In this document: in pieces, positions 13,149 through 47,325 of the stretch
Layout: each line of letters begins with the position of its first letter
Position numbering within the stretch: position 1 is the stretch's first letter
Assembly (NCBI RefSeq): GCF_004010195.1
Contig: NC_057712.1
Span: forward strand, 68,313,872 to 68,377,871
Source of the DNA: Chiloscyllium plagiosum
Lineage: Eukaryota
DNA: 64,000 nucleotides
Direction of reading: 5' to 3'
The notes under the pieces: model-generated
What the model saw: only the letters and a program-made list of their open reading frames with translations
Database searches by the model: none
What the model was told of the DNA's origin: nothing
Made by a program: the position numbers and the translations under genes

Positions 13149-13789
13149 CTGCAAAGTAAAGCATGGTTGTTGTGTCCAAAACAACTTCTTCAAACACAGA
13201 TTCTGTTACCATACAGTGATCTAGCGGAAACACCAGTAGCAATACTCTAATTGTAATTCTATTAGTAGTTCTCGCTAACCATCATATAGTAAGAGTTTTC
13301 CTTAAAAGATAAAAGGACCAAATTTCCCAATGCTTTCACTAAGGCAACACCCACATCAAGGCACAAAGGTCAGAGAAAGGGTGCAGCAAACAACCTACCT
13401 GGAACAATGCCCCTTCACGTTATCTGAAAATCCTCAGTGCTTCCACAAGGTGATGATGTTGGGGAAAAGAACTTGTATATAACCAATGGAAAATGGGCCA
13501 TTGGTTATATACAAAATGAGGCAATGAGGAACAGTTCTAGCTTCACACTTTAATTTTGTTTACATAGTTCGGTTGGGAATGCAAAGACATTAGGAACTGG
13601 GAGTGATGCCAAGAGCTGCACTCTGTGATGGGTTTACTATAGCTCAGATCAAAGAAAAGCCTCTGATTGCAGTTCGCAAGAAATCCATGCCTCCCCCCAC
13701 CATCAGGACAGTAATCAAGCCTCTAGATGTCCAACAGTAGCCAGTAGGGCCCAGGTCAATGGGACATGGCAGAGCTCCAATCGATAACT

Positions 13790-14860
13790 GAAAAAAGTAT
13801 TGGAGTAATCCTTTGCGACACACTACTGCCCCTTTGGTCCTTTTCACCTGCTTCACTGTTCAATATGATCACAGCTGATGATGTTCCCACTTTATTCCCA
13901 TATTCTTTGATCCCTGTAGCCCTAAGAACCATTTTTAATTCCTTCTTGAAAACATTCAATGTTTTGACCTTGACTTCTTTTTGTCACAGAGAATTGCACA
14001 GGTTCACCACACTCAGGGTAAAAAAAAATTCTCATCTCAGTCTGAAATGGTCTACCCAGTATCCTTAGGCTGAGACTCTCCAGTCACTTCAAACATCTGC
14101 CTCTCATTTACCCTGTCGAGTTCTGTTAGAATTTTGTAGGTTTAAGTCATACAGTCATAGAGATGTACAGCACGGAAACAAACCTTTCGGTCCAACTCGT
14201 CCATTCTGACCAAATATCGTAACCTAATCTAGTCCCATTTTACCATCTCTTGGTACATATCCCTCTAAACCCTTCCAATTCATACACCCATCTAGATGCC
14301 ATTTAAATGCTGCAAATTGTACCAGCCTAATTCCCCCTCATTCTTCTAAACCACAGTGAATATAGTTCTAACCAATCCATGCTCTCTTCAAACATCTCAG
14401 GAATTAATCTGGTAAACCTTCATTGCACTCCCTTCAAAGCCAGAAGATCCTTCCTCAGGCAATGAGACCAAAACTGCACACAATGGTCCAGGTGTGGTCT
14501 CACTGAGGGCTTGTACAAATGCAGCAAGACACCCCTACTCCTGTACTTGAATCCTCTCACTATAAAGGCCAATATTACATTGGTCTTCTTCACTTTCCCT
14601 GCATGCATACATTCAGCGACTAGTGTACCTCAAGACATGTTGCAACTCTCCCTTTCCCAATCGATTGCCACTCAGATCATCTGCTTTCCTGTTTGCATCT
14701 CTGTATACTCTTCACAGTTCACCATCCCACCCAGCTTTATGTCATCTGCAAACTTGGGACATTAAATTTAGTTCCCTTATGTAAATCATATATAGTGAAT
14801 AGCTGGGCTCCAAGCACTGATCCCTGTGGTACCTCAATAGTCATTGGCTGCCACATGGAA
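13790..14860 (-). mobile_element. CR1 LINE RT/3' fragment with a nested younger CR1 3' end (about 14145-14328)
   Basis: VPQGSVLG, LYKPSVRPHLDHCVQFW in minus ORFs; the nested piece begins AGTCATAGAGATGTACAGCACGG (reverse of the GACTCTAT tail). Confidence 0.75.
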
Positions 14861-15364
14861 AATTGAAGGAAAAATGAGGCTGTAGCCAATGCGAGAGAAG
14901 AGTTCACATTCTTGGCACATCGCAATGAATCCTAGAACAAGGGAAGATGACAGACTTGAATTGAATTGAAATGCTTTGACTAATCAAACATAAACATTTA
15001 TTTGCTCAGAGGGCAAACAGTGCAATGAGGGATGTTTTAAACTAATTCAGTGTCTGGAAAGTGCAAATAAAATTCATGTTTGAAGCTAGGAAGGAACAGT
15101 CAGGCAAATAAAACAATTAGAACTGAAATTGAAGGTGTGCCTGAAATGACCAGTATAAAAATATTATCAGAGAAGAGGAGAAACAAAGTATGTGGCAGCA
15201 GTACATCAGAAAGGGAAAGGGACATCAAACAATGAAATGAAAAACCCACAAAGAAAATTAAGAGGCAATGTTCCAAACTTTACAATCATGTAAAACAGGA
15301 ATGTACAGAACATTTAAACAGTCTTGTAAAAGAAACGTAACAAGCGCTTTGGTATTTTAGGGGT

Positions 15365-17480
15365 AATGAATGGTGCTGAACATTGCACAATCATCCACGA
15401 ACATCCCCACTTTTGACTTTATGATGGAGGGAAGATCATTGATGAAGCAGCTAAAGATAGTTGGGTCTAGGACACTACCCTGAGGAACTCCAGCAGAGAT
15501 GTCCTATAGCTGAGGTGATTGACCTCCAACAACCACAACCATTTTCCGATCATAGGATCATTGAATCCCTACAGTGTGAAAACAGGCTATTTGGCCCAAC
15601 AAGTCCACACCAACCCTCCAAAGAATAGCCCACCCCAGACCCATTCCCCCACCTTGTTACTCTACATGTTTCCTGACTAATACACCTAACCTACACAAAC
15701 CTGAACATGATGGGCAATTCAGCATGGCTGATTCACCTAACCTGCATAATCTTTGCACTGTGAGAGGAAACTGGAGCACCTGGAGGAAACCCATGTAAAC
15801 ACAGGGAGAATGTGCCAACTCCACACAGACAAATGCCCAAGGCTGGAACTGAACCCAGGTCCCTGCCACTGTGAAGCAACAGTACTAACCACTGAGCCAT
15901 CGTGGCACCCAATGTGTCAGGCATGACGCAAAACAGTGGAAAGTTTTACCTGATAACCTTTGATTCCAGTTTTGCTAAGGTTCTTTGATGCTGCACATGG
16001 TCAAATGCAGCCTTGATGTCAAGGGCTGTCACTCTCACCTTACTGCTGGAATTCAGTTCTTTTGTTCATGTTTGAACGAAGGCTAGAATGTGGTCTGGAG
16101 CCGAGTGACCTTGGTGACCCAAACCGAGTGTCTCTGATCAGTTTATTGCTGAGCAATTGCTACTTGATAGCACTGTTGGTGACACCTCCCATTACTTTAC
16201 TGATGATTGAGATTAGACTGATGGGCAATAATTTGCTGGGTTGGATTAGTCCTGCTTTTTGTATCCAGGACATACCTGAGTAATTTTCCACATTGTCAGG
16301 TAGATGCCAGTGGAACAGCTTGGCTAGGGGAGCAGCAAGTTCTGGAGCACAAATCTTCAGTACTATTGGCAGAATGTTGTCAGGGCCCATAAGTTTTCTG
16401 TCTCTAGTACCCCCAAACGTTTCTTGATATCTCGTGCAGTGACTCGAATTGGCTGAAATCTGGTACCTGTGATGCTGGGATCAATGAAGGAGGCCCACGT
16501 GGATCATCCAAATGGCACGTCTGGCTGAAGATTGCTTAGAATGTACAGCTTTATCTTTTTCACTGATGTATTGGGCTCTTCCGCCATTTACAATTGGGAT
16601 ATATATGTAGTTTTCGCTTCCACTGAGTTGTTTAATTGTCCACCACAATCCACGACTGGATGTGGCAGGACTGCAGAGCTTAGGTCTGATCCATTAGATG
16701 GGTCGGGGAGTCCAGAACAAGAAGGCATAGGTTTAGGGTGAGAGGGGAAAGATATAAAAGAGACCAAAGGAGCAACTTTTTCATGCAGAGGGTGGTACGT
16801 GTATGAAATGAGCTGCCAGAGGATGTGGTGGAGGCTGGTACAATTGCAACATTTAAGAGGTATATAATTAGGAATGGTTTGGAGGGATATGGGCCGGGCG
16901 CTGGCAGGTGGGACTAGATTGGGTTGGGATATCTGGTCAGCATGGACAGGTTGGACCGAAGGGTCTGTTTCCATGCTGTACATCTCTATGACTCTATGTG
17001 GGATCACATCACTCTGTCTATCACTTGCTGCTTATGCTACTTGGCACACAAGTAGTCCTATTTGGTAGCTTCAACGGGTTCACACCTCATTTTTAGCTTT
17101 GTATGGTGCTGCTCTTGGCATGCCTTCCTGCACTGTTCATTGAACCACGATTGATCTCTGGCTTGATAGTAATGGTTGTTCAGAGGATATGCCAAGCCAT
17201 GAGGTTACAGTTTGTGTTGGAGTACAATTCTGCTATTGATGGCCCACAGTGCCTCCTGGATAAAGTGAGGACTGCAGATGCTGGAGATCAGAGCTGAAAA
17301 ATGTGTTGCTGGAAAAGTGCAGCAGGTCAGGCAGCATCCAAGGAGCCCTTCTTATGCCTGAAACGTCGAGTGCCTCCTGGATGCCAGTCTTGAGTTGCTA
17401 GACCTGTTTGAAGTCTGTCGCATTTAGCACAGTGATAGCACTATTCAACACAATAGAGGGCATTCCTAATGTGAAGGTGG
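15365..17480 (-). mobile_element. Old CR1/L2-like LINE ORF2 remnant hosting nested insertions (SINE 15555-15908 minus; CR1 3' end 16700-16997 plus; PLE fragment 17262-17368)
   Basis: MGPDNILPIVLKICAPELAAPLAKLF...PISLISIISKVM in ORF 16160-16390; the PLE fragment is flanked by a 14-bp direct repeat AGTGCCTCCTGGAT (17248-17261, 17369-17382). Confidence 0.75.
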
Positions 17481-17744
17481 GATGTAATGGGATGAATTAT
17501 GCTCACCTGAGTGGACACACAGACCCTCAGTTTAATGAGCCATTCAAAAAACAAGCACCTCTTGACAGTGCAGTAACCCACTCAGTAACGAAGTGAAATA
17601 TCAGGCTTGATTTTTGTGCTCAAATGCCAGAGTTACATGCGCACCCACATCCTCCTTCCTTAGACGTAGTGCTACCAACTGGACCAAGGGGATATATTTG
17701 TGGTTACGGTTAGACAAGGATATAAAGGTTATATGGTAGTTTAA

Positions 17745-17957
17745 GGAGAAAGTGAGGTCTGCAGATGCTGGAGATCAAAGTTGAAACTTTATTGCTGGAA
17801 CAGCACAGCAGGTCAGGCAGCATCCAGGGAACAGGAGATTCGACGTTTCGGGCACAGGCCCTTCTTCAGGAAGAAGGGCCTGTGCCCGAAACGTCGAATC
17901 TCCTGTTCCCTGGATGCTGCCTGACCTGCTGTGCTGTTCCAGCAATAAAGTTTCAAC
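17745..17957 (-). mobile_element. Fold-back PLE pseudo-LTR mini-element (perfect 89-bp inverted repeat) with a hammerhead motif
   Basis: Arms 17779-17867 and 17870-17958 with a 2-nt spacer; matches the PLE end at 4110-4234; 15-bp TSD TATATGGTAGTTTAA (17730-17744, 17958-17972); intact hammerhead on the minus strand at 17839-17872. Confidence 0.92.
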
Positions 17958-19016
17958 TATATGGTAGTTTAACAGAATAATTCTATTACATTGCCAGAGT
18001 ATCTTCAAGTGCATTGGATTGACTATTTCTACCCAGAAAGAGTGTTAAGAGAAAGAAGGGAACCTGGACAAATTACCTGTCTCAAATAACTTTCTGAACA
18101 TTCTGCAGATATGGGGAACATCATAATATTTGGCTATTTTAACAATCCCAATATCATAGTTAAAACACAAACAATCTACATTTCTCACCCATCAAGGAAA
18201 GGACCATTACTTTCAAAAACTAAATTTAATAAATCTGGTAAATAACTAATATAGTTCAGTAAGATACAAAAGCATCTGACAAAAATCAAATGGAAACAAA
18301 GTTTAGAAAACAAGTTAGCAGATTAGTGGTAAGTCTTCCAGAAAGAGATTTACAAAGTACAAAACAAATATATTGTTTTGCATCACCGGTGTAACATTGG
18401 TAATGGTGTAACAAAGCAAAAACAAGGACAAATCACGTAACTATATGCCAGTAACCTCTAACCCAATGTCAGTTCGAGAAAATACTTAGAATTCAAGTTT
18501 TATAAAAGTGCAGCTGTGCTTGAACATTTGAGCTTTGGATAACCTGACTGACTGAATAAATAAAGGGAAAACAGGAAATTGAATTTTTGGAACTGAAAAT
18601 GCTAAAACGAATGGAAGAGAGCAGGAAGACAAGCAAAAATAATTTTTCAATGGTTACTCGAGAAAAAAAATTAAAGCTGTCAGTTGGATTTGCCACGATG
18701 CACTAAAACATAATTGCTTGAAATACATATTTATATTAATGCACTGAACTGAATGCCAATGCCATATTCTGGGCAATAACAGATGCTTTGATTTTCCAAC
18801 AACACCCAAACTACTGACTCTGAATCCTTACCCACAAGTATCATGCACTGTGTTACACAACCCATTTTTAACAATGTTTCACAGCAACCAACCAGAGACC
18901 CAATGTCAGGAACTAGCATTACTAGCATAGGTCATTTTGCAATATATAAACAACTAGAGAGGAAAACATTGCTCTCCAACTTCTGATCATCAATAAGAAT
19001 TACATGAATTACCTAC

Positions 19017-19090
19017 TTGGCACACACTGTCCGTTTCATGATTCTTTTTGCCATGTCCTCAGAGGGAATGTGTAGAATCCAGAAAGGGGA
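19017..19090 (-). CDS. TRMT11: TRMT11 coding exon 3
   Basis: tttcag|SPFWILHIPSEDMAKRIMKRTVCA AA|gtaggt; 74 nt. Confidence 0.97.
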
Positions 19091-19874
19091 CTGAAAAATA
19101 AACTTATACATTAAGATACTTGGAATGTCAGGAATGTTAGTGAAGCTTTTAAAAGAACTTTAGTGAACATGAATTAAATTAAAATATGTTGGCATTAAAC
19201 TGAACCTCACATCTGGCAAATTTTGTTGAATGTTACAGGAATTCAAACATCTACATTCATCAGCCTGCAACAAAATGTGCTTTGAAACTGCAAACATTTC
19301 CTAAATTACAACTTTTCACTCTTACTTAGAAGAAAGTGAAAACTATATCACAAACTAGAACTAGAAATAAAACTTCAAATGCAAGAGGTAGAGAAGCCTT
19401 ATTAATCAGACAGACAATCCGATATATTACATAGATGATTTTAAGTGGTATTATCACTGAATTATTTATCCAGAGATCCAGGTGATGTTCCAGTGATCTG
19501 GGTTTGAATCCCACATAGGCAGACGGTGAATCAGAATTTAACAGAAATGTGGAATTAAAAGTCTAATGATTATAAAAGCATTGTCACTTGTTGGAAAACT
19601 CCATCTAGCTTACTAATGGGGTTTCCTTTCGGGAAGGAAACTGCTATCCTTACATGGCCTGGCCAACATGTGACTCCAAACCCAAGGAAACATGGTTGAC
19701 TCTTAACTACCCTCTGGGCAATTAGGAATGGGTAATAAATGCTGGCCTAGCCAGCAAAACACATCCCATAAATGAATAAAAAATAAATTTGTAACAGTTC
19801 TAATATCAAATCCCACAGAAACTCAAGGTGCTCCATGAATCATGAACCAAGGCTAAATTGAATAACAACATAGC

Positions 19875-20411
19875 TGTAATTCTGATCGCCTTCCTATCAG
19901 AAAGATGTTGTGAAACTTGAAAAGGTTCAGAAAAGATTTACAAAGATGTTGCCAGGGTTGGAGGATTTGAGCTATAGGAAGAGGCTGAATAGGCTGGGGC
20001 TGTTTTCCCTGGAATGTCAGAGGCTGAGGGTTGACCTTTACAAGGTTTATAAAATCATGAGGGGACTTGGATAGGGTAAATAGACAAATTATTTTCCCTG
20101 GGGTGGGGGAGTTCAGAACTAGAGGGCATAGGTTTAGGGTGAGAGGGGAAAGATATGAGAAAGATGTAAGGGGCAACTTTTTCACGCAGAGGGTGGCACG
20201 TGTATGGAATGAGCTGCCAGAGGAAGTGGTGGAGGCTGGTACAACTGCAACATTTAAAAGGCATCTGGATGAGCGTATAAATAGGAATAGTTTGGAGGGA
20301 TATGGGTCGAGTGTTGGCAGGTGGGACTAGATTGGGTTGGGATATCTGGTTGGCATGGACAAGTTGGACCAAAGGGTCTGTTTCCGTGCTGTACATCTCC
20401 ATGACTCTATG
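19875..20411 (+). mobile_element. CR1 (HER1-like) LINE 3' fragment
   Basis: TRGHRFRVRGERYEKDVRGNFFTQRVARVWNELP and a 3' UTR ending ATGACTCTAT. Confidence 0.9.
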
Positions 20412-21228
20412 AACTGCACATCCATTTGGATACTTGTGATACCAAATCCTGTTCATTTCTAGATGCACTATAGCTGAAGATGCAAGGGTTTGTGACTTCT
20501 GTATTTTTTCCATTATTTGTCTTATCACATAATATTTGATATCAGTGGCATTACAGCCCCTTGAAGTACAAATACAAGATTCATATAGTATCGGTTAATA
20601 AGAAAAATGCCCCATGGCATCTCACTGAAGCAAATGGAAAATATACATCAAACCACAGGAAACATTATTACAATAACTGAAAGCTTGGTTGAAAACGTGT
20701 TTTAAGGGCAGCCTTAAAATCAGAAGGGTGGTGACAGAGCTGACGATTTAGAGTAGAAGTTGCAGAGCATAGTGGCAGTGATGCTGTAAGCCCTTAACAA
20801 TGAGGCAGAGCTGAATCAATCAAGGCTAAGGGAATGTACTGTCTCACAGCACCTATAATCCATCCACCCCACTCCCATCACCAGTAAATCAGTTTTTCTC
20901 TTTTTTCTTTTTTCATGGGATGTGGGCATTGCTGGCTGGCTAGCGTTTATTGCCAATCCCTAGTTACCCTTGAGAAGGTGGTGGTGAGCTCCTTTTTGAA
21001 CAGCTACAGTCCATGTGCTGTAGATTGCCCAACAATGCCATTAGGGAGGGATTCCAGGATTTTGACTCAGCAACAGTAAAGAATGGCTATATATTTCAAG
21101 ACACGATGGTGAGTGGCTTAGAGGGGAACTTGCAGGTGGTGTTGTTCGTGGATGCGAATGAGTCACAGGAGAAAGAGGGAGCAGAAGAGAAAACAGTCGC
21201 TTTAGCTCTGTCCCCTGGAGCAACTGCT

Positions 21229-21323
21229 GGCAGGTGGGACTAGATTGGGTTCGGATATCTGGTCAGCATGGACAGGTTGGACCGAAGAGTCTGTTTCCAT
21301 GCTGTACATCTCTATGACTCTAT
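21229..21323 (+). mobile_element. Very short CR1 3'-end insertion
   Basis: TGGCAGGTGGGACTAG...CTATGACTCTAT flanked by the direct repeat AACTGC (about 21223-21228, 21324-21329). Confidence 0.75.
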
Positions 21324-21375
21324 AACTGCCCTTCCCCATCTCTGCCTCACTGAAGGGGACTATTGAAGTAAAACT

Positions 21376-21763
21376 ACGTCTGGAATGGAGTCGACCTGAG
21401 CAAGAAAAAGATGCCTAGGGAAAGCATCATCCATTTGGCTTTGTTGCAGTAGAATCCAGATGGTATTTTAAACATAATGAACTGGGAATGTGTTATTCCA
21501 AATGAAAGGCAATGCTGTGCGAAGGTGGGAAGTATAAGGTTTGAATGTTCTTTGAAGATAACTACCCCACATCGCCACCAAAGTGTGAACTTGAGCCTCC
21601 AATATTCCACCAAACGTGTATCTCTCTAGTACTGTGTCTATTCATTCCAGAGAAAAATAAGGATTGGAGACTTGCTATTATTATTAAGCAGATATTACTT
21701 AGAATTCAAGAACTTCTAAACAAACCACCAGTCAAGACCCAGTGCAAGCGACGCATACACAAC
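21376..21763 (+). pseudogene. UBE2I: Processed pseudogene of SUMO-conjugating enzyme UBC9
   Basis: Intronless, frameshifted match to UBC9: (ACG)SG..., [69 protein letters not shown]; contains stops and indels. Confidence 0.9.
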
Positions 21764-22339
21764 GTTTCATAAGACTTCAAATTTTAACATCTATACTTCC
21801 TTCAGAACAGGTTATCTAGCTTGCACTGCCATTCTTCGCTGCTTTTATTTCAAGCATTGAATGTCTGAAATATATCACCTTTTGGCCTTAATTAATTTAC
21901 AGGTACTAAACAGGATGGAATCCATTATATCGGTAAGGTGGAAGAGGAGGTGGAAATTGACCCAGGAGAACATGGCTAAGGTTTCATGTATTGAAAAATT
22001 AGGCGAGCAATCATGCCTGGAATGCACAGGGAGCAGTATATGTATGAGTGTGGAAAATGATAGTCAGCAACAGCCATTGAACATTGCTTACATTTTTCTA
22101 TCAAGAAACTTTAACATGCCTTTGTAATTTTTGTGATACAAACAGATTATTGCACAATCACTAATATAAAAAGACAACCTCACATACTAATTAGTATATA
22201 TGTTCCAGAACATGACAACATACCAAGCAAACAAAGACTGTAATATAACTTGAGATTTCTCAGAATAAATATAAGCAAAATAAGTAGTGTGATGTGATTA
22301 TCTGTGCATTTAGTGGTAAAAGTTAAGGATGTACCATAC

Positions 22340-22405
22340 CTTTTCATCAAAGCTTTCTTCACATTTTAATTGTCCAGCACAAAGAGAAAACAGGGATTTT
22401 AGTTC
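22340..22405 (-). CDS. TRMT11: TRMT11 coding exon 2
   Basis: ttacag|ELKSLFSLCAGQLKCEESFDEK|gtatgg; 66 nt. Confidence 0.93.
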
Positions 22406-24819
22406 CTGTAACAAAAAGATAGGTGGTTGGCAATGGCGCATATAAAAACCCTGAAAAGCTGCCGAATCAAAACCCTTCTGAATTAAAAGAATACTCACTT
22501 AACAAGTACTTCCTTGATTATCAAATAAGACTTTCTGATTGGAGTTTCAATATCCCTCTAACATCTTTTTGTTTGGGACAGTTTAGGTGTGTTTAATGAT
22601 AGCTACATTATTGCATTAAAGGATAAATATTATTAAAATTTATATGATTCTTCCTACCTTTGTAGGTGGTCTTGACAATCACTCTATCCAAGAGTCTGAA
22701 TCTAATGGCTTAGCAACCAACAATAAGGTGACGTTAAAATTACTTCAGATGTTCATATCATCAACATTGAATAACAAAAGCATAGACAGTGAAGATGGTT
22801 CCTGTTTGGAATAATGAATGAATGGCACACAAGGTGAATAGGCAAGGTTGCTTAAATATTTCATCAGTGTGGACCTTCAATATGAGAACTATCCACTTTC
22901 CATTCTTGGACCAGGTTGCACCAGCAGTTACTAACCATTTTGCATCATAAGGACAGATCTTGTGCTAGATAATACATATATGCACACTGATCAAAATCAT
23001 GCTGACCATAGGAAATAGTAAGCCTTTTGGCCTCGCGAGCCTGCTTTGCCATTCAATAGGATAACGGCTGATCCAACATTCTTCGCATGCACTTTCCTGC
23101 CCTTTCCCCGGAACCTTGATCAAACGAGGAATCAAGGATTTTATCTACCTCAGAGTTAAACATTCACAAGGTCTCTCTGTCCTCACAGCTCACTGTGACA
23201 AAGAGTTTTAAAGAGTTTCAACCCTCAGACGAAATTCCTCCTTATCTCAATTTTAAATTGGCATCCCTTTATTCTGAGACTGTCCCCTCTGGTCCAAGAT
23301 TCTCTCATCAACGGCACCACCATCTTAGAGTGAACCCTATCAAGTCCCTTAAGAAATCCTATATCTTTCAATGAGATCACCTCTCATTCCTCTAAATGAA
23401 CAGCTCAAATTATGATCATGTAAAAATTTTCATACACATTAGAGAGATCATTCATCTGTAGAGCTGAAGTATCAGAGGAGAAATAACAGTACTCGAAGCA
23501 AACAAAATATCTGTTCACGCAATATGTGTGAATGCACCATCTACAAAGTTTACAACAGTATAAGAATTACTTATTAGTTTAGATAAAAGGTTTTTTTTTA
23601 TTGTTATGATACTGTTAGAGTATTCATCAAACCATCATGAATACAACTTAACTAACAAGGAGAAGTGGTTAAACTAAGTTGCTGCTCCTTTCTATAGGGT
23701 CAAGACCATTTCGCAGCCCTGAGTCTTACATCACTTTTTTTGTAGGGCCCACTAGCAAAAGGTATAGGATTAAGTCTTGATAGCCAGGAAAGCAGGAAAT
23801 CCTCACAGAGGGAAGCCAGCTCTGCATTACAGGGTGTGGGTGAAATTTACACTTCTTGGGAAAGCACCAGAGCTGTAGCAGAGACATGATCAGCCACCCG
23901 ACTATCGTTGTGTGAAGCGATTGTTATTAGAGCTCACACTTCATGTGAATTTGAATGAGATGCAGAGAGACTGCAAGCACCTGGGGCATGAACTATATTC
24001 AGCAAATGATCTATGGAAATAGAAGGTGATTATGGTGACCTTTGCCCTTATTAGTGGAGGCACTGAAGACAAGAGCAAAGAGCTTATGATACAGCTCTAC
24101 AGAACACCAGTTAGGCCACAGATGGAATATTGTGAGCAGTTCTGGTTGTTACACAATATGAAGGGTGTGACTGCATTCAAGAGGATGCAGAGAAGATTCC
24201 CCAGGCTGTTATCTAGGCAGGGAATTATTCAGTTATAAAGAAAAACTACAAAGAGTTGAGGTGTTTTTCCTTGGAGGGGGGTTGGAATCTTTTTGTAGAG
24301 TACAAAATTGAGGGACATAGACAAGGTACACAGTGAGAAATCTTTCCCCTCAGTTCAGAGGTCAATATCCAAGGGCCAAATTTTTATGCTAAGCAGCTGG
24401 TTTAGAGGGGATTTGAGGGTTTTTTTTCACCCAAATGAGTTGTGGGGATCTAGAACACTGAAAGAATAGAAAAAGCAGGGGCCCTACAGACATTTAGAAA
24501 ATACTGAGATGACCACATGAAATGCCATAATATACAATCCATAGGTCAAGTGTTGGAAAATGGGTTTTGAATCAAAAACAGAAATTGCTGGAAAAAGTTA
24601 ACTTTTTTTTCCATATGTTGTTTGTCCAGCACTTTTGTTTTTCAGATTTCCAGCATCAGCAGTTAATCAATTCTTTGAATTGTTTTGGAACAAGTGGATG
24701 TTTTATGCCAGGAGCAGACACGATGGACCGAGTGGCCTCCTTCCTTGCTGTAAAAACTGACTCCTGCAGCTGCTGGGAATTTGAAACACAAAAAGCTGCA
24801 AATTCTCCTCTTGTTCTGG

Positions 24820-25085
24820 AAGTGAATCCGCGGTGCCAGGTCTGACCGAGAGTTCAATCCCATCTCCGGTTTTCACCGGGCGGCCAGAACCCAGGCCCAA
24901 CTCGGACTCACCGGGAGCCGGAATTCCAGGTTTTCTTGAGCCAAAAGCAGCAAAAACCTCCTACACACGTTCCCACTGGAAAGCGCCATGTTCCCGTCCG
25001 TCAACAAAACCATCCCGTGCTCCGCCAGAGCCGCGACTCTTGGTTCCGGGACTGACTCGCCCTCTACCTCGACGATCACCTTCTC
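24820..25085 (-). promoter_or_regulatory. Small CpG-rich promoter/first-exon region of TRMT11
   Basis: Local rise in GC and CpG around exon 1 within a CpG-depleted background. Confidence 0.6.
24912..24989 (-). CDS. TRMT11: TRMT11 coding exon 1
   Basis: aacATGG Kozak context; MALSSGNVCRRFLLLLAQENLEFRLP|gtgagt; QExLEFRLP is the Trm11 N-terminal signature. Confidence 0.96.
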
Positions 25086-29562: not shown

Positions 29563-30142
29563 TAGCATTTTTTTTGGTTTCAGTACAGATTCCAGCATCT
29601 GCAGTAATTTGCTCTTGCATTGTTTTTACTGGTGGTGGTTATTGGTTTCTTTTTTTAAAAAAACAGGAACGTCACGATGATTCTGGTGGTGAGAAGGTCA
29701 CTCAATTGTGCGTAATAGCACTTCGGAGTACACAAAAAAAAACGAAACAGTGAATATCTCACCCACAAGTTGGGGGTGACACAGTATCATTTAGTATTAG
29801 TGACATTGATAGATTGCAACAAGTTGCATTATCCGATGGACAGGCGGCGCTCCCACCCTCGGCTCAGCCCTATTGGTGTCCAGATGAAATGTTTCTCCTG
29901 TCGGTTTATGAAACCGTCAATCCTAATGATCCCGGCCGAGTGTGACATGCAGCAGGACGTCCAATAGGGTGTCCAAGTCTGCAGTTTGGTGTGGGCTTTT
30001 AACGAGAAAAACATCCAGAAAAATCTTCATTGCAAGTGAACAGTGTCATGAAAAGCGAATCGACCGCTGTTTGTTATAGGGTCAGAAATGGCTGCGATGA
30101 CCTCCCAGGATTAGGGGATCCTGCTAATGTGCGGGAATAAAA

Positions 30143-30598
30143 ATGGCAGCGAGTGGAGGCAATCGCCAAATGCCAGGACAGGACGGAAATGCAAGCCTGA
30201 GGAAGAAGTGGCAGGAATGGGCCGACGACCACAGACAGTACCAAAGGTCCAATCCTTTCAGCGGCTCCCACGCGGTCACTCTGCGGTTGCAGAGAGGGGA
30301 TGAAGAATACGGGCGTCCCAAAAAGGGATCCAAAACAGACCAGAGAGGTAAAGATGCACATACCCACATCGGGAAAGAAGTCGAAGAGTTGCTTTATGTT
30401 ATTAGAAGGTACGGAGAAGCCGGGCCAGGCGGGAACATCTGCATAACTTTCGGGAGATTGTTTGATGCTTACGTGACAATTTCCAATAAAGTGGTGGGAA
30501 TCCTGCTACGAGCGAGAAAACACGGTCTGGTTCATTTTGAAGGGGAAATGCTTTGGCAAGGAAGAGATGATCGCGCTCTCATCACGCTGCTTGAGTGA
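30143..30598 (+). CDS. ABRA/STARS-like actin-binding Rho-activating protein (C-terminal Costars-domain region only), 151 aa, single ORF
   Basis: KWQEWADDH..Q..NPFS, GDEEYGRPKKGSKT, ITFGRLFDAYVTISNKVVGILLRARKHGLVHFEGEMLWQGRDD match the ABRA C-terminus; aaaATGG Kozak, in-frame upstream TAA at 30125, CpG-rich, AATAAA at 30806-30811. Confidence 0.9.
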   Translation: MAASGGNRQMPGQDGNASLRKKWQEWADDHRQYQRSNPFSGSHAVTLRLQRGDEEYGRPKKGSKTDQRGKDAHTHIGKEVEELLYVIRRYGEAGPGGNICITFGRLFDAYVTISNKVVGILLRARKHGLVHFEGEMLWQGRDDRALITLLE

Positions 30599-31064
30599 AG
30601 ATAGATTTGTGGGAAATTAGACTTTGTGAAGTTGCACTTTTTGATTGTGGTTGCACTGCAGTGAAGCTACACATATTTTAAGCCTTATTTTGAAAAAAAA
30701 ACCTCGACACATCAAAATCTGATTGTATTTAATGACCTGAAATGTGGATTTGTAGCAAAAGAAACAAATATTTTCAACTATGTACAGAATATATGTTCCA
30801 ATGCAAATAAACTAACGCGGATGCTGCTAAGATAGAAATGGAAAATGCTGGAAACACCCAGTGGGTTTGGTAATATCTATGAAAAAGAAACAGTAAATGT
30901 CTCGGGTCAATGACCTTGAAAGTATTGTAAGATTTGCCAAAACCTGCCGGCAGTAATGTATAGAATCAATAAAGGTTTACTGTACCAATAGAGGTCCACT
31001 ATTTTTACAACCAAACAAAGCCATCCTGACTACGTGACAATTTCCAATAAAGTGTGGGAATCCT

Positions 31065-38283: not shown

Positions 38284-39062
38284 TCTAAGTGTGCTTATAC
38301 CAAAATCTAATATTTTGAAATAGAAACCAACTGGGCACAACTGAACACCCTTGTGACCTTAAAGGACAACTTATAAACTGCAAAACTGTACCTCATGAAA
38401 ACATACTTCAGTTTCCAGGTTACACCTCAATGTTGTATTTGCACACTGCTTTTTCACGATACTGTCTAAACATACCAATTCTGCCCAGACTGGTGTCCCA
38501 ACTTTCACTATCCATAAACCTCCACTGCCAACACACTAACTCTCTAAGAGATGTAGGTTGCCAGTGTTTGAGACATTAGGGTAAAATCCAGCATTTCAGA
38601 GGTGCCAAAATCTTATAGTTGTGAGCTGAAAATTAGATTTCAGTGTTAACACATTTAAGAAAATGCAGTACTGTGGATCAGAGAATACTGCATTATAAAA
38701 GCATCAAGTAGCTATGGCACAGAGAACACCAGCAATTCAACTTGTAATGCACTTACAAGCAATGGCTTGGATATTCTGCAGTGAATGTACATTATAATTG
38801 TATAATTATTCTATTTTTATATTCAAATTAATGGACTCTATAACTGTTGTTATGTTAGCACAAACAATTCAACACAAGATGGTGGCACAGTAGCGACTCA
38901 TTTTTACGTTCTATCTGTAAGAACACATTATACATTTTCTGAATGAATTAGTGTGCTCTCATATTCAGTTCCATAAACTGAGAACAAAAATTTGTTACAA
39001 TATCTGAAAACCTAATCCATACCAATGTAGTCATGTACTAATAACTTGCCACATACAAGATA

Positions 39063-39068
39063 TTTATT
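39063..39068 (-). terminator. Candidate polyadenylation signal of HINT3
   Basis: AATAAA on the minus strand about 440 nt after the stop codon in an AT-rich, repeat-free stretch. Confidence 0.4.
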
Positions 39069-39508
39069 GCACATGGAACATTTTCACATACTTAAGGTTT
39101 ACTGTAATGTTGATACAATTAAATATTTAAAATGGTATTTAAGACAAAACTTACATAACAACATTACATAAGTAAAGTTCTTCAGTATTTCCAATTTTAC
39201 ATCTAGCTAAATTTTCTGATTGCGTGCATGCTGACAAGTTTAACAAGTCGTTATTTTTCACTTACACAAGTAAATTTTGCAGTTTTTGTTAAACTGTCCA
39301 GAAAACTGCTACAGATCTTCACTTCCTAAATGAAAAGTTATGAATTTGAAAAAACAGAAACCGAGTAAATGGATTTTTTTTTCAATTCTAATGGGCATAA
39401 ATTAATTCTTGTTCATTAAATCCAGATCAAAGAGCAGCTGCAGTCTTGAAGTCTTCTAGAAGTATCTGCAGTGGAACTCAACTGCATGGATATAGTATCT
39501 TCTATCAT

Positions 39509-39553
39509 TCACTCATCCGGAAGAGACTTTAGATTTTCAATCAATTTGTCAAC
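39509..39553 (-). CDS. HINT3: HINT3 coding exon 5 (terminal)
   Basis: ccctaag|VDKLIENLKSLPDE-TGA; phase 0, fits exon 4. Confidence 0.85.
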   Translation of the reverse strand, partial: VDKLIENLKSLPDE

Positions 39554-40248
39554 CTTAGGGTGGGGGAAAATGTCTACAATGTAATAAGTGAGATAAACGT
39601 ACGCAAAATATAATCTATAATTGATACTGAGTGAAGCAGTGTGATCTTTGTTGAATCTTTCAGAGAATTATTTTAAAACATAGCTGGCACTGTTGACATT
39701 ATAGTTTCCTCTCTGTATTGCCTATGCAAGATGAATCTGGGCAGTTTCAATCCAGTTTCCAGTAAGCATAAAACAACCCATTATAATGTTTTATTTGGCA
39801 ATTGCCTAGAAAATACTTTCACGGAAGTATAGAGCCATTTAACTTCAAAGTATGGAAATCAAGTACAATAAATTTTGACTAAAAGCCTTTTTCAGTGTCT
39901 ACAGAATATATCATGAAATAGTAATTGAGGTCAGGAATCTATCTGCAACATAGAAGGAGGCCAATCAGCTTTGGTAGCCTGTTCCACCATTCAAAAGATC
40001 ATGGCTAGTCTGATTGTGGTCTCAATTCCTCTTTATGCGCCCTCCAAAACCTTGCTTTCTTATCTCATACTTGGGTTTCTGAAAACAAGAACTGTTCCTC
40101 CAGTGTCATTAAGGACAGACCAAAGACTGAAACTGAGTGTTCACTAACATTAAGAAGTGCATATCTCAATAAAGTCATAGAGGGCCCAGTGCAAATTGGC
40201 TTACATTTTCACCTATCATATAATGAACAACAGGGACAATATACTTAC

Positions 40249-40375
40249 TGTAACGAACCAGTAGGAATTAACTCGGTAAACCAGTCTCGATATAAATCCC
40301 ATCTGACTGGCTGGAGCCAATACATGCAAGTGCAAGTGAGTTATTGTACAGAATGGGGGCAGGTGAAAGCCCAGC
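40249..40375 (-). CDS. HINT3: HINT3 coding exon 4 (histidine triad)
   Basis: tacag|[43 protein letters not shown]|gtaagt; 127 nt; HLHLH HIT motif. Confidence 0.97.
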
Positions 40376-41052
40376 CTGTAAACCAATCCAATACTTTTGT
40401 AACAATTCTGATGATAATCTGGGATAGCACAAAAATCACAGCATAAAGCTTCAAAGAGAAAGCTGAACTAAGGCAATTAAATTCATCCAGAAAATATTAC
40501 ATTTATTCATGTTAAAATTTATAGCTTCAGTGTAATTTAAATAATAAACTTGTGAAAATAATGCAACCAAAGTTATAGGTAACTTCAATGTTTATTGTAA
40601 AATTAAAAACGAAGAGATGTTAATGTGCTGGGTGTTATTTTAATACTATTTTGTTATTGCCATTTGCAGTTCTTTACAGAATGTTTAGTTAGACAGAGGG
40701 GATAATTATTCAGTAGATTACATCACAGCACATGCCTGCGAGTAGCATGTAAATAGGCAATATTTCTCACAGTAACTGTGTGCTAGCTTCCGTAAGCAAT
40801 GTAATTTATTCAGCTACAAAGTGAATACCAACACATTTCAATGAATGTTGCTTCACACAATTCAACTTAAATATTCACTAAATCATAGTTTATTATTTTT
40901 AAATGGTCGGAGCTTTGTGCATGCCTTTTTGGAAGATTACATAAAAAAAACCATAGGTAGCTATCAAACAAACAAATGTCATAACCATAACTTTTTCAGA
41001 ATCATATTTGGTTATCAAGCACCCCTTTTATATTCTGGAGTACTGTACATAC

Positions 41053-41122
41053 CTTATATCTGCCAGGTCATTCATGCCATTTTGTTGCAGTACACTTTTT
41101 CCAATGTTCACCATCTTTTGAA
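41053..41122 (-). CDS. HINT3: HINT3 coding exon 3
   Basis: aatag|(V)QKMVNIGKSVLQQNGMNDLADI AG|gtatgt; 70 nt, phases match both neighbours. Confidence 0.94.
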
Positions 41123-41574
41123 CTATTCATTAAAACAATTTTGTAATTAGTTATAGCATAACATAACCAAAAAGCATGTACACTAAAAGCAACATGTAAA
41201 ATAAAAACAAATAATGTAAAACTACAATTTACTTTTCATAATTTAGAACATAGTCCTCTCCCATTTTATCAGCCAGTTGTTCAATCACTTTCCAGGCACA
41301 CGCAGGCAATGGGTCAATAAGGTACCTTACTACATCTCATTCCTACTACTGGGACACTGGTAAAATTAAGTAGCCCACAAATAAAGGCAGTACCTAGTAC
41401 TGGCAACATTAGGACATGAGTTAAACTGAAAGATCACTAATCATCTTGTCCCTCTGAAATGCTAACACAGAGCAGACAGCAGTCACAACAACAAAACACG
41501 GCAAAACATTACAAAACAAACAGGAGAAAATTAATATTGCATCCAAAGGCTTACACAAGTCTGCTTTGTATTTT

Positions 41575-42950
41575 AAATAAGAATGTAGAAAATTGCCCAA
41601 GTATGCCCCGTACACAAATAACAGAACAAATCCAAACCAGCCAATTGCCACCCTATCAATTTATTCACAATCATCAGTAAAGAGATGGTCGGTGACATCA
41701 ACAATGCAATCAAGCAGCACTTACTCAGCAATAACCTGTTCAGTGACGCCCAGTTTGGGATCCACCAGGGCCACTCAGTTCCTGACCTCATTACAGCATT
41801 GGTTCAAACACGAACAAGAGAGCTGAACTCCATTGGTGAGGTGACAGTTATAGTCCACATTCAGTTGAGTGTGGCAAAACACCCAAGCAAAACTGGAATC
41901 GATGGGTATTGGTGGCAAACTCTCCACTGGATGATCTCAAAACTGACACATAGGAAAATGGTCATGGTTGTTGGAAATCAATTATTTCAGCTCCAGAACA
42001 TCTCTGCAAGAGTTCCCCAGTGTGGTATCCTCAGCCAAACCAACTTCAGCTGTTTTATCCGTTCCCTCCATCGTAAGGTCAGAAGTGGAAATGTTTGCCA
42101 ATGAGTGCCCAATATTTAGCACCATTTGTAACTCCTCAAATACTGAAGCAGTCCATGCTGAAATACCACAAGATCTGGACAATATCCAGACTGGGCTGGC
42201 AAATAGTAAGTAACATTCACTCCACACAAATGTCAGGCAATGATCATCTCCAATGAGAGATAATGTAATCATCACCCCTTGACATTCATTAGTGTCACCA
42301 TCACTACTACATCATCATTCCCCACTCTCAACATCCTTCGGGTTACCAGTGACCAGAAAGTCAACTGGACTCATCACATAAACACAAACAGCAGATCAGA
42401 GGCTAGGAATTCTGTAACAAGTAATTCACCTCCTGACTCCCCAAAGCCTGTCCACCATCGACAACATGCAAGTCAGGGGTTTAATAGAATACTCCCCACT
42501 TGCCTGGATAGGTGCTACTCCAACAATAATTAAGAAGCTTGATAGCATCCAGGACAAAGCAGCACTCTATCTACAAGCAACCACTCCCTCCATGGGCAAT
42601 GCTCAGCAGCTATGTGTACTATCTACAAGATACATTGCAGAAGTTCACGAAAGATCCTTCCAAACCCCTGACCACTTCTGTCGAGAAGGACAAGGGCAGC
42701 AAATAACACAGGAACACCACATCTGCAATTTGCCCTCCAAGCCACTCAGCATCTGACGGAAATATATTGCGGTTCTTTGACTGTCACTCGGTCAAAATTC
42801 TGAATTCCCTCCCCAAGGGCATTTTGGGTCAAACTACAGCATATGGATTGCAGTGGTTCAAGAAGGTAGCTCACCAGCTCCTTCTCAAAAGTAACTAGGG
42901 GACAGCCAATAAATGCCGGCCCAACAATGATGCCCATGCCCACGAGTGAA
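41575..42950 (+). mobile_element. Old CR1/L2-like LINE RT and 3' UTR remnant
   Basis: AIKQHLLSNNLFSDAQFG, VPQCGILS, DQKVNWT, LIEYSPLAW. Confidence 0.8.
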
Positions 42951-43566
42951 AAAGATCAATTTAATATCCCTGCCCTTTGTTATTAGTCCATCCAAGATAG
43001 TGCAATATTATGCACAGATAATTGGGTATGCTAAATGTGATTCAAATTACTGAAAGTGATCACTGAAGACAAGTACTGTAGCACACTGACGACAAATACT
43101 GTAGCTTGTGCACCATTCCAACCAGAATACATCCGTCATTCTGTGTAAACAAAAGTTTATACTACTGCTGATACTACAAAGCATCAAATATTACACAAGG
43201 AAAAATAAATCAATATTGCCACATATGCAATCCACATACTGGGGTACTCAGGTAAGCTATAATTCAACAGAAGCCGTTTACGAGACAAGGGTGCTAGTAG
43301 AAGCTTGTGCTGGAAACGGAAATTAAATAGAATTTTCAGATGTGACCATTACGCAATCATATCACCAAACTAATCATTTATATTTAGGACTTAATGCATC
43401 TATTGCATTTAAACTCGCTCTTTGGCCTATCAGAGTTCATCCAAAGAGCTGTATTTTTGAAGTACGTTCACAAAATGTATTTATAAAGCCTCTACAAGCA
43501 CAGTTCAAATGAAAGATAATGAAGTGTTGTTATATGATCTGAACAACAAAGTGAATGCAATCTCAC

Positions 43567-43684
43567 CCACTGATATATGCTCCTTCTTCAGAGATTTGCA
43601 ATTTGCAATGTGTTTTCTTGGTACAACAAGATAATGATGGGGCGCACCAGGGCGAATGTCCCTAAAGCAAGCAAACTGGTCATC
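43567..43684 (-). CDS. HINT3: HINT3 coding exon 2
   Basis: gtgcag|DDQFACFRDIRPGAPHHYLVVPRKHIANCKSLKKEHISV G|gtgaga; 118 nt. Confidence 0.97.
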
Positions 43685-44899
43685 CTGCACAAAAACAAAT
43701 TAGCATTTTAATATCTCTGATGACTTACTTAATAAAGATCGTGTCACTTAAGAAATAAATGTGGTCTTTTGGTCATAATTATTTTAAATTTCTCAGCTAC
43801 ATATCCATTTGATACAGCTGGTTAAAATATAAAAGCAAAATTCTCCATTCGTTCAAGATCTGAATTGCTGGAAGTGGTTAGGTCTACCATCATAGCATAT
43901 ACTTTCTTTTATTCATTTATAGGATTTCACTAGCAAGGCCAGCATTTAATGTCCATCTCTAACTGTTCTCAAAATGGCAGAGAGATGTCTTTTTGAACTG
44001 TTGAAACCACATGACGGAGGGAGGGGATTCTTCGAGTTTCACGTCAAAATCATTCTGACTTGGAAGATAAAATGTTGTTTGTAGTATACTATGCTCTTGT
44101 TCCTGTAAGTGATAGAGGTTGCAGGTCAGGAAGGTGGTTTCGAAGGTGTCTTGCAGGCTGCTATTGTGCAGCTGTCATCAGGCACTGGCATTATAAGGAG
44201 TGAATATTTAAAGTTGCAGGTAGGGTGCCAATCATGTTCTGACCTGGATGATGTTGGGCTTCCTGAGTATTGTTGGAGCTGAACTAATTTAGTTAAGTGG
44301 GAAGTATTAAATCACACTTCTGTCTATTTTGTAGATCCCTCTTCAATTTCAAAATGCTCTATATAATCTAGCTGTTTGACTGGGCTTTTTTTCCCTCCTT
44401 GGCTTCCCCTTCAAATTGGGCAACTACCCTATAAAGAGTTGTAAAGGATTCTTTTGAAAGTGTAGCTTCTACACAATGCAAAATGGAATATGATCATGCA
44501 TTATGATTTGTAGATATTCTAAATGTAAATTTAATTGTAAATTATTTTTAGTTGAAGGTTTATCAGATTAGTTGCACAAATGTTGGAGAAACTATTCCCA
44601 TTCATAATATAATCAAGACCCACAGGGCACAGATTTAGTGTCTTTGTAAAAGAAGTAAATGCAAGATGAGAGAGAACTTTTTTCCCACAATGAGATATTA
44701 GGGTCTGGAACGCACTGCCTAGATGTGGGGCAGATTGAATTGTGGCACTCTGGAGTGCTTTAGATGATTATTTGAAAGAAACCAATGTGAAGGATTATGT
44801 AGCAAAGGAAGATTGTGACTGCACCATTTTAGCTTAGTGCCAATGAAGTGAATGGTCTCCTTTAGTGCCATAACAAAACTGCAATTCTAATACCAATCA

Positions 44900-46130
44900 T
44901 GTGAAGCAGTTGTCCACACAAAGCAGGAAAAATCAACCAGCCAATTATCACCCCATCAGTCAACTCTCAATCATCAGCAAAATGATGGAAAGGGTCATCC
45001 ACCGTGCTATCAAGCAGCACTAAGCAGTAATCTGCTGGTTCTTAATTTGGCTTTCAGCACCACTCAGCTCCTGACTTCATTACAGCATTGGTACAAACAT
45101 GTGCAAAAGATTTGAACTCCAGAGGTGAGTTAGAAGTTGAGGTGAGGTTGTCCTTGATACCAAGGTTGTATTTGACCAACTGGGGCATCAAGGAGCCCTA
45201 GCCAAACTGGAGTCATGGGATTCAGGACAACTTTCCACTGATTGGAGATAAAGGAAAATCATTGTGGTTATTCAAGGTAAATAACCTCAGTCTTGAAACA
45301 TCCCTGCAAGCGTTCCTCAGGGTTGTCTCCTGGTCCATCTTTATCTAATTCAATGACCTTTCTTCCATCACAAAGTTAGAAGTGGGAAGGATCGTTAATG
45401 ATTGCAAATATAGCATTCAGCATCATTTGTGACTCCTCAGATAGTGAAGCAGGGCACACAAGTGCCAGCCATGGATTACCTCCAACAAGGGAGAATCTAA
45501 ACCATCATCATTTGATATTCAGTTTGTATTACCATCGCTGAATCCTTGATTATTAACATTTTGTGGTTTGCCGTTGATCAGAAACTGAAGTTGTCCTGCT
45601 ATATAACTATTGTGGCTACAAGAGCAAATCAGAAACTCAGGAAATAAAAACCAAAAGTACTGCGGATGCTGTAAACCAGAAACAAAAACAGAAGTTGCTG
45701 GAAGAGCTCAGCTGGTCTGGCAGCATCTATGAAATCAGAGTTAATGAGTTCAGAGGAAGGGTCACTGGACGTGAAAAATGAACTCTGATTTCACAGATGC
45801 TGCCAGACCTGCTGAGATTTTCCTGGAATATCTGTTTTTGTTTCAGAGATTAGGGATCCTGCATTGGGAAACTTGCTTGCTAACTCCCTAAACTTCACCA
45901 CCATATTCAAGGTACACACTGGCATTACTGAATGCTCCCGACTACGTGGATGGCTGCAGCTTCAACACTCAAAAAAGCTTCATAGCCTTAGGTCAAAGCA
46001 GTCTATGTGACTGTCCCCATATGGAATACTTTCAATATTCAATCCTTTTACTGAGGCACAGTAGCAGCAGTGTATACCATATACAAGATGTACCAAATAC
46101 ATAGGAACATCACTACCTACAAGTTTACTT
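44900..46130 (+). mobile_element. Old CR1/L2-like LINE remnant with a nested fold-back PLE mini-element (about 45642-45843)
   Basis: Same family as 41575-42950; the nested inverted arms about 45680-45742 and 45781-45843 surround a decayed hammerhead CAGAGGAAGGGTCACTGGACGTGAAA. Confidence 0.65.
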
Positions 46131-46689
46131 CACTTCTAAGCCATTAGCCTCACTCTGAATTTTCTTTTCAGTCAGTCATGGGATGTGGGCATCTCTGGCT
46201 AGGCCAGCATTTATTGCCAACCTCTAATTGCCTGCAGGGCAGTTAAGCGTCAACCATATTGCTATAGGTCTGAAGTCACACATTGGCCAGACCAGCTGAG
46301 AATAACAGAGCTCCTTCCCTAAAGGACATTAGTGAACCAGATAGGTCTTTCCCCGACAAGTGGTAATGATTTCATGGGTGTTACTAAACCCTTAATACCA
46401 AAATACTTATTGAATTGAGATTCCACCATCTGCCATGGCAGGATTTGGACTAGAGTCCCTGGAACAGTAGCTCAGTTTCTAGATTTACAGTCTAGCAAAC
46501 ATCACTGGGCCATTGCTTCTCCCAGGCAAATATATCACTGTTCCTTCAATGTTGCTTGGACAAGATCCTAGAATGATTTTCCTAACAGAATTGTGGATCT
46601 GCCTGCACCAAATGGACTGCAGTGGTTCAAGAAGGCAGCCTGAAGGCAACATGTCACAAATATTACTTGCCACTTGTCAGTGCAAACCT

Positions 46690-47325
46690 GGCATTATCCA
46701 GGTGCATTTGAACTTGGACTGATGCAGAATCTGATGAATCTCAAATGGCGCTAAATATTGTGCAATCACCCTAAGGAACTCCTGCTGTGATGTTCTAGAG
46801 CTGAGATGACTGATCACCAACAATTATAACCAACTTCCTATATGTCAGGTACAAGTCCAAACAGCTGAGAGTTTGCACCCTGCTTCCCATTGCTTCCAGT
46901 TTTGCTTGGGCTCCTCGATGCAACACCCTGGTTGAATGCAGTCTGGATGTCAAGGAATGTCATTCTCACCTCGCCTCTGGAATTCAGCTCTTTTGTCCAC
47001 GCTTGAACCAACGGTTTAATGAGGTCAAGAGCTGAGTGGCCCTGGTGGAACCCAAACTGGGCATCGCCGAGCAGATTATTGCTGAGCAGCTGCTGTTGAT
47101 GGCACCTTCTATCACTTTACTGATGATTGAGAGTAGACTGATGGGCTGGTCATTAGCTGGGTTGGATTTGTCCTTTTTTTGTGTGTACAGGACAATATGT
47201 GTACCTGGGCAATTTTCCACATTGTTGGGTAGATGTTGTAATTGTACTGAGCCAGTTTGGCTCAGGAACTGGCAAGTTCATTGGGCTTAAGTCTTCAGTA
47301 CTAATGTCCGTGAATGTCAGGGCCA
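46690..47325 (-). mobile_element. Old CR1/L2-like LINE remnant
   Basis: KKDKSNPANDQPISLLSIISKVIEG in ORF 46984-47220. Confidence 0.7.

Follow-up and report, generated by a model that had tools for sequence, protein, structure and literature searches.

An intact, transcribed single-exon ABRA/STARS paralogue of 151 residues, found from sharks to marsupials and predicted to bind F-actin in the cytoplasm

As represented by the available part of PMC4682817, the STARS literature knows an 81-aa Costars protein, a form of about 150 aa that belongs to invertebrates (insects and nematodes), and a vertebrate protein of just under 400 aa. The available texts of PMC3520124 and PMC7922284 state that ABRA residues 234-279 and 346-375 are required for actin binding, and that STARS lowers G-actin, by which MRTF-A is released to SRF. 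ABD1 binds actin more tightly than ABD2, which alone binds weakly (PMC7922284, available text), and residues 270-375 of Ms1 bind DNA (PMC4682817, available text).

Here we describe a short ABRA gene of the shark Chiloscyllium plagiosum, located in a 64-kb stretch of DNA that was analysed as a whole and is called the window below. Its closest described relative is mammalian ABRA/STARS/Ms1 (about 375-381 aa; structure 2KRH), with which it shares a core of 62% identity, the Costars winged-helix fold, the GRP motif and both required actin regions; however, the short form has neither the long N-terminus nor the RRRKC nuclear localization signal (NLS), belongs to a separate clade, is variable where ABRA has the acidic FDY...AM, lies beside NCOA7 instead of OXR1, and had no placental copy among the matches listed. 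Vertebrate long forms of a second clade (B, represented by a shark gene on C20 and, by primer match, by zebrafish zSTARS of PMC3399798) likewise have the core (54% identity in the shark), belong to the R-spondin paralogon and are encoded in a single frame in the shark, but they measure about 340-370 aa, possess an N-terminal repeat and a basic RRR motif, and on C20 lie 3' of R-spondin and angiopoietin genes. The size and core-only layout of the short form are those of invertebrate STARS-like proteins (tunicate, 156 aa; spider, 189 aa; insects and nematodes as above), although it falls inside the vertebrate clade and its W-x-x-W helix is of the vertebrate type. ABRACL/Costars (about 81 aa; 2L2O) shares the Costars domain but lacks the ABD1/AT-hook part of about 60 aa and has its own gene on C9. 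The short ABRA is therefore an addition to a known family in a layout known from invertebrates, and no new kind of system. Overall, we judge it reasonably probable that it is an intact, transcribed paralogue, retained from sharks to marsupials, with a likely origin in the first genome duplication of vertebrates and a predicted role in binding and stabilising F-actin in the cytoplasm.

The short ABRA gene and its transcript

The features of the locus are as follows.

30143..30598, + strand: coding sequence of the short ABRA/STARS paralogue, 151 aa (open reading frame)
29751..31000, strand not applicable: CpG-rich stretch over the gene (o/e 0.74-0.80 in 750-bp windows)
29867..30990, + strand: single-exon polyadenylated transcript of about 1.1 kb (contig 5' ends, poly(A) reads)
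29867..30142, + strand: 5' leader, containing nine upstream ATGs, all out of frame, and two in-frame stops, at 30098 and 30125 (sequence)
30968..30973, + strand: poly(A) signal in use (poly(A) reads)
39050..48330 (ends approximate), - strand: HIT-family gene, presumably HINT3, convergent with short ABRA (exons)
2130..24989, - strand: methyltransferase gene, presumably TRMT11, divergent from short ABRA and exiting the window (exon motif)

The open reading frame contains zero internal stops, begins in a strong context (A at -3, G at +4) and is preceded by two in-frame stops, TAA at 30125-30127 and TGA at 30098-30100; in one contig of run X5 a variant abolishes the first of these, and the second stays. 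An earlier sequence-only reading of the window had reported the uninterrupted frame, the good start context and the upstream stop, and all three were seen. The CpG-rich setting and the AATAAA that it had mentioned were likewise found: the frame (GC 51%) has a CpG o/e of 0.83, compared with 0.29 for the whole window, the local value of 0.78 was matched in just 4 of 248 N-free 750-bp windows of the 64 kb, and AATAAA occurs at 30806-30811 and 30968-30973. A protein identical to the translation is already present in NCBI, UniRef and nr under the automatic name 'ABRA-like', as had been suspected, and its relatives at 98-99% identity are from hemiscylliid sharks. That reading was familiar with no functional description, and the literature covered, which mostly excluded subscription papers, yielded no description of a short vertebrate ABRA paralogue or of three ABRA clades.

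The gene had been placed between HINT3 and TRMT11, opposite in orientation to the former. HIT-family and methyltransferase neighbours are indeed there, with the HIT-family gene on the - strand and short ABRA on the + strand; both gene names are our assumption, taken from motifs and gene order. Exons of the HIT-family gene lie at about 43570-43700 and 40250-40380 (-), and its last exon at about 39553-39509 is followed by an AATAAA near 39068. Since this last exon ends about 8 kb away, the short ABRA gene is intergenic. The other neighbour, starting at 24989 (-), includes a methyltransferase-type DPFVGTG exon near 2150, one of the supporting matches being weak. We know of no human gene between HINT3 and TRMT11. 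Tandem GC-rich repeat units occupy 48330-48670, in a CpG island just upstream of the presumed HINT3 start.

Transcription was seen in two kinds of data. In five of five contig runs, the contigs begin at 29875, 29870, 29867, 29878 and 29881, cross the ORF unspliced, show no joint within the unique part, and leave the non-repeat flanks empty or nearly so; the RNA nature of these runs is a guess, supported by coverage confined to the short ABRA gene. The X1 contig has 22 unaligned letters at its 5' end. In run X19, sampled at about 2%, 95 raw single-cell poly(A) reads fell on 29625-31120, and most read pairs were oriented as expected of + strand RNA. Because 22 of these reads end at 30986-30990 in a poly(A) that the genome does not encode, the AATAAA at 30968 is in use; four further reads end at a genomic A run near 30701. 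Run X20, from the same sample, gave 0 reads on the region and counts as no test. Just 3' of the poly(A) site, a near-exact duplicate of about 37 bp of the coding sequence (30470-30507) lies at 31031-31067, 560 bp downstream, and contains an AATAAA at 31046.

An upstream coding exon is unsupported, since the contigs start at 29867-29881, run unspliced through the ORF and have empty flanks; the joint-free unique region in the five contig runs and one raw-read run speaks against a spliced one. The leader of about 270 nt harbours nine upstream ATGs, all out of frame, a point that the sequence-only reading had missed; they may damp or limit translation, or there may be further start sites downstream. 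The transcript has two CCAAT boxes in opposite orientations (29872-29876 and 29961-29965) within its first 100 nt. In the 840 bp scanned upstream of the start (29300-30142), neither a CArG box nor a MEF2 consensus was present, so muscle expression is unsupported; the tissues of the sequenced runs are given as codes only. Coding differences listed for two related-species contigs comprised 6 synonymous and 4 nonsynonymous ones, and over these 10 listed differences pN/pS was 0.19 (binomial p 0.011). The short ABRA gene is expressed and, among close relatives, under purifying selection. The sequence-only reading had allowed for splicing to a large upstream coding exon and for a silent gene with dN/dS near 1; what we found was an unspliced transcript that crosses the in-frame stops, and the above ratio.

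Protein architecture and predicted function

Three parts of the protein were located on the + strand.

30365..30592, + strand: Costars/ABD2 winged-helix domain, aa 75-150 (Pfam PF14705, E 4e-31; 2KRH best by sequence and fold)
30185..30250, + strand: predicted helix, aa 15-36 (W-x-x-W...H...Q), where an ABD1-like region starts (alignment to rodent ABRA begins at residue 238)
30311..30319, + strand: GRP core, the AT-hook motif of Ms1/ABRA, aa 57-59 (alignment; PMC4682817, available text)

A search of solved structures with the short ABRA protein returned ABRA ABD2 (2KRH) at E 1.9e-28 and ABRACL (2L2O) at E 8.3e-5, in line with the earlier statement that the gene encodes the C-terminal part of ABRA and differs from ABRACL. 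The AlphaFold2 model (mean pLDDT 77, pTM 0.52) consists of the helix 15-36, a low-confidence linker and the winged-helix domain, with 2KRH as the top Foldseek match. The protein aligns with rodent ABRA 238-375 at 62% identity, which by segment amounts to 45% (237-256), 39% (257-274), 68% (275-293), 54% (294-345) and 87% (346-375). Residues 193-237 of ABD1 (defined as 193-296) are missing, leaving this domain partial, and the NLS (RRRKC, rat R153 by the available text of PMC4682817) is missing together with the long N-terminus. Across short forms, the 346-375 end is 82% identical to rodent ABRA, W23, Q34, N37, P38 and F39 are invariant over short and long forms alike, and the GRP AT-hook core is kept in the shark protein, its R being changed in several other short forms. 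The acidic FDY...AM stretch is only 31% identical to rodent ABRA in short forms, compared with 70-78% in long forms.

By alignment, both actin-binding regions required in ABRA are covered by the short form, and its counterpart of the higher-affinity actin site appears weakly conserved (39-45% over 237-274). From the span 238-375, the kept GRP and the missing NLS, we infer that the short ABRA is probably a cytoplasmic F-actin binder that feeds MRTF/SRF, with a changed affinity; the latter is probable because the acidic stretch that is fixed in long forms is variable here. In such a mechanism, the ABD1-like helix region and the winged-helix ABD2 would bind and stabilise F-actin in the cytoplasm, the G-actin pool would fall, and MRTF would be released to SRF, as with the C-terminal part of STARS, without NLS-regulated nuclear import.

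Less probable, though the main alternative, is a changed job in non-muscle cells that involves no MRTF/SRF activation: the protein may act in the manner of Costars/ABRACL, compete with long ABRA for ABLIM/F-actin, or diffuse into nuclei and bind DNA there through its AT-hook and winged helix. The divergence of the FDY...AM stretch beside a conserved 346-375 end would fit such a change, as would the scanned 840 bp with no CArG or MEF2 motif. A protein of about 17 kDa can enter the nucleus without an NLS, which also counts for it, as does the retained GRP core together with DNA binding by Ms1 270-375 (PMC4682817, available text). On the other hand, the protein has each of the two regions on which actin binding depends, the five residues named above are invariant across short and long forms, the R of GRP is altered in several short forms, and the DNA-binding role comes from one paper. 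We thus prefer the actin-binding role.

Three ABRA paralogues and their chromosomal setting

Three Costars matches were obtained in the shark genome: the short ABRA in the window, ABRACL on C9, and on C20 an ABRA of 360 aa that is encoded in a single frame. In a tree of the core (58 hand-picked rows), vertebrate sequences formed a single clade (99/95) with the tunicate outside, and 20 short forms (90/93) stood apart from the long forms plus all four cyclostome rows (89/86). With 27 rows and a simpler model, the long group received 100/100 and the short forms were left as an unresolved set. Full-length trees divided the long forms into A (99/98; mammals, gecko and teleost abrab) and B (97/97; cartilaginous fishes, lungfish, sturgeon and teleosts). 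The chimaera has all three paralogues: one is short, one belongs to B, and the third joins A at 86/86. In the core tree the short ABRA falls outside clade A. The sequence-only reading had proposed a second ABRA ohnologue; an old paralogue in the NCOA7/RSPO3 block it is, but there are three paralogues, not two, and the shark's long ABRA falls in clade B and is not the orthologue of human ABRA, which belongs to clade A. A clade-A ABRA was not found in the shark genome with four queries, and tblastn was negative over 120 kb around the 3' end of the OXR1-like gene (1872 N) and over 200 kb between angiopoietin and RSPO2 (3305 N), an assembly gap being possible.

Approximately unbiased (AU) tests rejected a duplication of short and long forms within cartilaginous fishes (p 0.003), the pairing of the window protein with the shark's own long ABRA (p 2.4e-5), a grouping of elasmobranch B and bony-vertebrate A (p 0.0008), and an origin of teleost A and B as a pair in the teleost duplication (p 2e-5). 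Not rejected were short with A (p 0.086), short with B (p 0.11), and all jawed-vertebrate copies as one clade (p 0.087). The duplication postdates the divergence of tunicates and predates that of sharks and bony fishes, with cartilaginous and bony vertebrates in each paralogue group. The tree suggests that short and long forms likely separated in the first-round duplication, shared with cyclostomes; this timing is not firm, because the three surviving topologies are left standing. No short-type orthologue was seen among the four cyclostome rows. The sea lamprey has a 1130-aa protein ending in an ABRA core, and lampreys have at least three ABRA-like genes.

These tests also bear on the idea that the gene arose recently in sharks, as a retrocopy, pseudogene or partial copy of long ABRA, or is the terminal exon of something longer. 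Its single exon, the nine upstream ATGs and the 37-bp piece duplicated downstream might suggest so; however, the long ABRA of this shark likewise consists of a single open frame, so the lack of introns is no mark of retroposition here. The shark protein shares 54% identity with its own long ABRA, against 88% with the whale shark short form and 58% with that of the Tasmanian devil, and together with the two AU rejections (p 0.003 and 2.4e-5), the unspliced transcript through in-frame stops and the pN/pS of 0.19, these identities refute this origin, to which we assign a negligible probability. Accordingly, of the outcomes that the sequence-only reading had itself foreseen, a copy nested within canonical shark ABRA was not found, nor is this the species' only ABRA, given the long one on C20.

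The short form is also widespread. A search with the short ABRA protein gave 385 relatives of 83-265 aa, and the best 120 of the 385, classed by three profiles, comprised 105 short-type proteins, 14 unnamed clade-A fragments and 1 clade-B protein; 141 Met-starting short-type proteins had a median length of 164 aa. Named ones come from sharks (whale shark XP_020386755.1), rays, chimaera, lungfish, coelacanth, sturgeon, gar and teleosts (zebrafish NP_001373321.1), and, among tetrapods, from caecilian, frogs, lizards, snakes, alligator, birds and Tasmanian devil (UniRef100_A0A7N4NNE5). They bear names such as 'actin-binding Rho-activating protein-like', some are mislabelled as plain ABRA, and many in birds are 'ABRA, partial'. 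The gene was thus retained in nearly all jawed-vertebrate groups, and not just kept in the shark lineage as had been thought. Loss in mammals, also claimed, was too wide a statement: the devil has an intact annotated copy of 153 aa, and the copy of the bilby is broken. In a search from the devil protein (120 of 214 matches listed), devil and bilby were the sole named mammals. No placental or monotreme short copy was present among the matches listed in this word-indexed protein search, which is not a genome check. Both short-type isoforms of the bilby lack the last ~40 conserved residues, and decay may be under way in marsupials.

Synteny was read within the shark's own genome only. R-spondin loci are at C3 67.24 Mb, C4 100.07 Mb, C20 56.62 Mb and C27 35.1 Mb, the four angiopoietin loci occupy the same chromosomes, and TLDc genes lie on C3 (NCOA7), C4 (OXR1-like) and C27, among others. 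The two ABRA paralogues (C3 and C20) are thus located among the four chromosomes (C3, C4, C20, C27) over which the duplicated R-spondin, angiopoietin and TLDc families are spread. The C4 R-spondin is RSPO2 (101 bits); that on C20, the next closest to RSPO2 (73 bits), is RSPO4 by elimination, and we take those on C3 and C27 to be RSPO3 and RSPO1, respectively. The short ABRA lies tail-to-tail with NCOA7 at 72 kb and 1.1 Mb from the C3 R-spondin, so the earlier view that its position fits an ohnologue holds in the shark genome. Long ABRA (C20:56845486-56846568) lies 3' of R-spondin and angiopoietin, on the same strand and within 230 kb. This order equals the human RSPO2-ANGPT1-ABRA order, but on the RSPO4 chromosome; human ABRA and OXR1 are tail-to-tail. 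The R-spondins are related as (RSPO1,3),(RSPO2,4), which the short,(A,B) topology matches.

Some further details of these chromosomes were noted. On C27, an OXR1/NCOA7-like TLDc gene (9749304-9756557) is present, ABRA is missing, and the fourth angiopoietin (34718489-34726774) adjoins the R-spondin (35112501-35162614). On C4, the OXR1-like gene (69769819-69786596) lies 30 Mb from angiopoietin (99474676-99480444) and RSPO2 (100074898-100089123), with angiopoietin preceding RSPO2 on the same strand, unlike the human order; this oddity near the expected clade-A site suggests a rearrangement or a scaffolding issue. ABRACL (C9:9609849-9610022) is off the C3 block that matches human 6q.

The gene might also have come to lie beside NCOA7 by an old small-scale duplication or a transposition in early jawed vertebrates, with no whole-genome duplication involved. 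In favour of this, angiopoietin is separated from short ABRA by 39 Mb on C3 and OXR1 from RSPO2 by 30 Mb on C4, so that the block was rearranged, and the AU tests do not fix the date of the split. We regard it as quite improbable: both shark ABRA copies lie near an R-spondin, on two of the four R-spondin chromosomes, the tail-to-tail layout with NCOA7 mirrors that of human ABRA and OXR1, and the short,(A,B) topology agrees with the R-spondin relationship. Whole-genome duplication remains our preferred origin.

The long N-terminus and its meaning for STARS studies

The question raised by the short form is whether its N-terminus was lost or that of the long forms was gained. The sequence-only reading had described a gene lacking the long N-terminus; only the C-terminal core is indeed present, but loss is less likely than gain in the other branch. 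Among 121 mostly unnamed and apparently non-vertebrate representatives (from 150 listed of 1317), the core match begins at a median residue of 30, and none has the long-form N-terminal motif, bar one teleost-type fragment. Residues 26-46 of long ABRA are a duplicate of its core W-x-x-W helix (223-243), and a weaker third copy follows the NLS. Because the N-terminal motif copies the first helix of the core, long ABRA likely grew by internal duplication. That the short form is ancestral in sequence as well is unsupported: at five diagnostic columns invertebrates have the short state at two and the long state at three.

Alternatively, the short ABRA might be an ancient paralogue that was secondarily shortened, a long ancestor having lost its N-terminus, e.g., by a deletion between the repeated helices. 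Frogs have clade-B proteins of 153-202 aa besides their short-clade gene, a second and independent shortening, so secondary shortening does occur. The first helix of the short form scores about equally against the clade-B N-terminal repeat (50.6) and the core helices (51.3, 49.1), the Met-to-Trp distances are alike (28 against 33), and the AU tests permit short with A or with B. Against this, the relatives in invertebrates and tunicates either lack the repeat or are short, the long forms and cyclostomes make one group with the short form outside it, and 86 of 107 distinct short-type helices are nearer the core helix than the N-terminal repeat. We therefore consider shortening unlikely and favour gain. 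Under the latter, an ancestral short gene, as in invertebrates, would have resided in a block with R-spondin, angiopoietin and TLDc genes; once this had duplicated for the first time, the RSPO1/3 side would have kept the short form, and the RSPO2/4 side would have acquired the long N-terminus, with its duplicated first helix and NLS, before splitting into A and B.

The paralogue assignment extends to zebrafish. Two RACE primers given for zSTARS (PMC3399798, available text) translate to clade-B peptides (8/8 and 9/9 residues), with at most 4 residues matching clade-A proteins; the teleost genes named abrab are clade A. The knocked-down gene is therefore likely a clade-B paralogue of mammalian ABRA, to judge from the primer sequences. 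According to the available text of a 2026 preprint (10.64898/2026.06.06.730616), abrab was lost in Antarctic notothenioids, which fits differential loss among three ABRA genes.

A broader interpretation, on which we are evenly divided, is that jawed vertebrates inherited three STARS ohnologues, of which one is known to the field; that the short copy is a distinct F-actin/MRTF regulator with the invertebrate layout, lost no earlier than late in mammals; that elasmobranch sharks run their muscles without an orthologue of human ABRA; and that the zebrafish knockdown hit B, which is apparently missing from amniotes. If this is true, the heart-essential STARS result in zebrafish and the results in mammals concern different genes, and the reassignment of zSTARS to clade B bears on how far the zebrafish heart phenotype speaks for mammalian ABRA. 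A short vertebrate paralogue conserved since before sharks and bony fishes diverged amounts to a deletion mutant made by nature, which may indicate what the long disordered N-terminus and the NLS add. Studies of ABRA in fish, frog and chicken should reckon with as many as three genes, whose automatic names are nearly identical.
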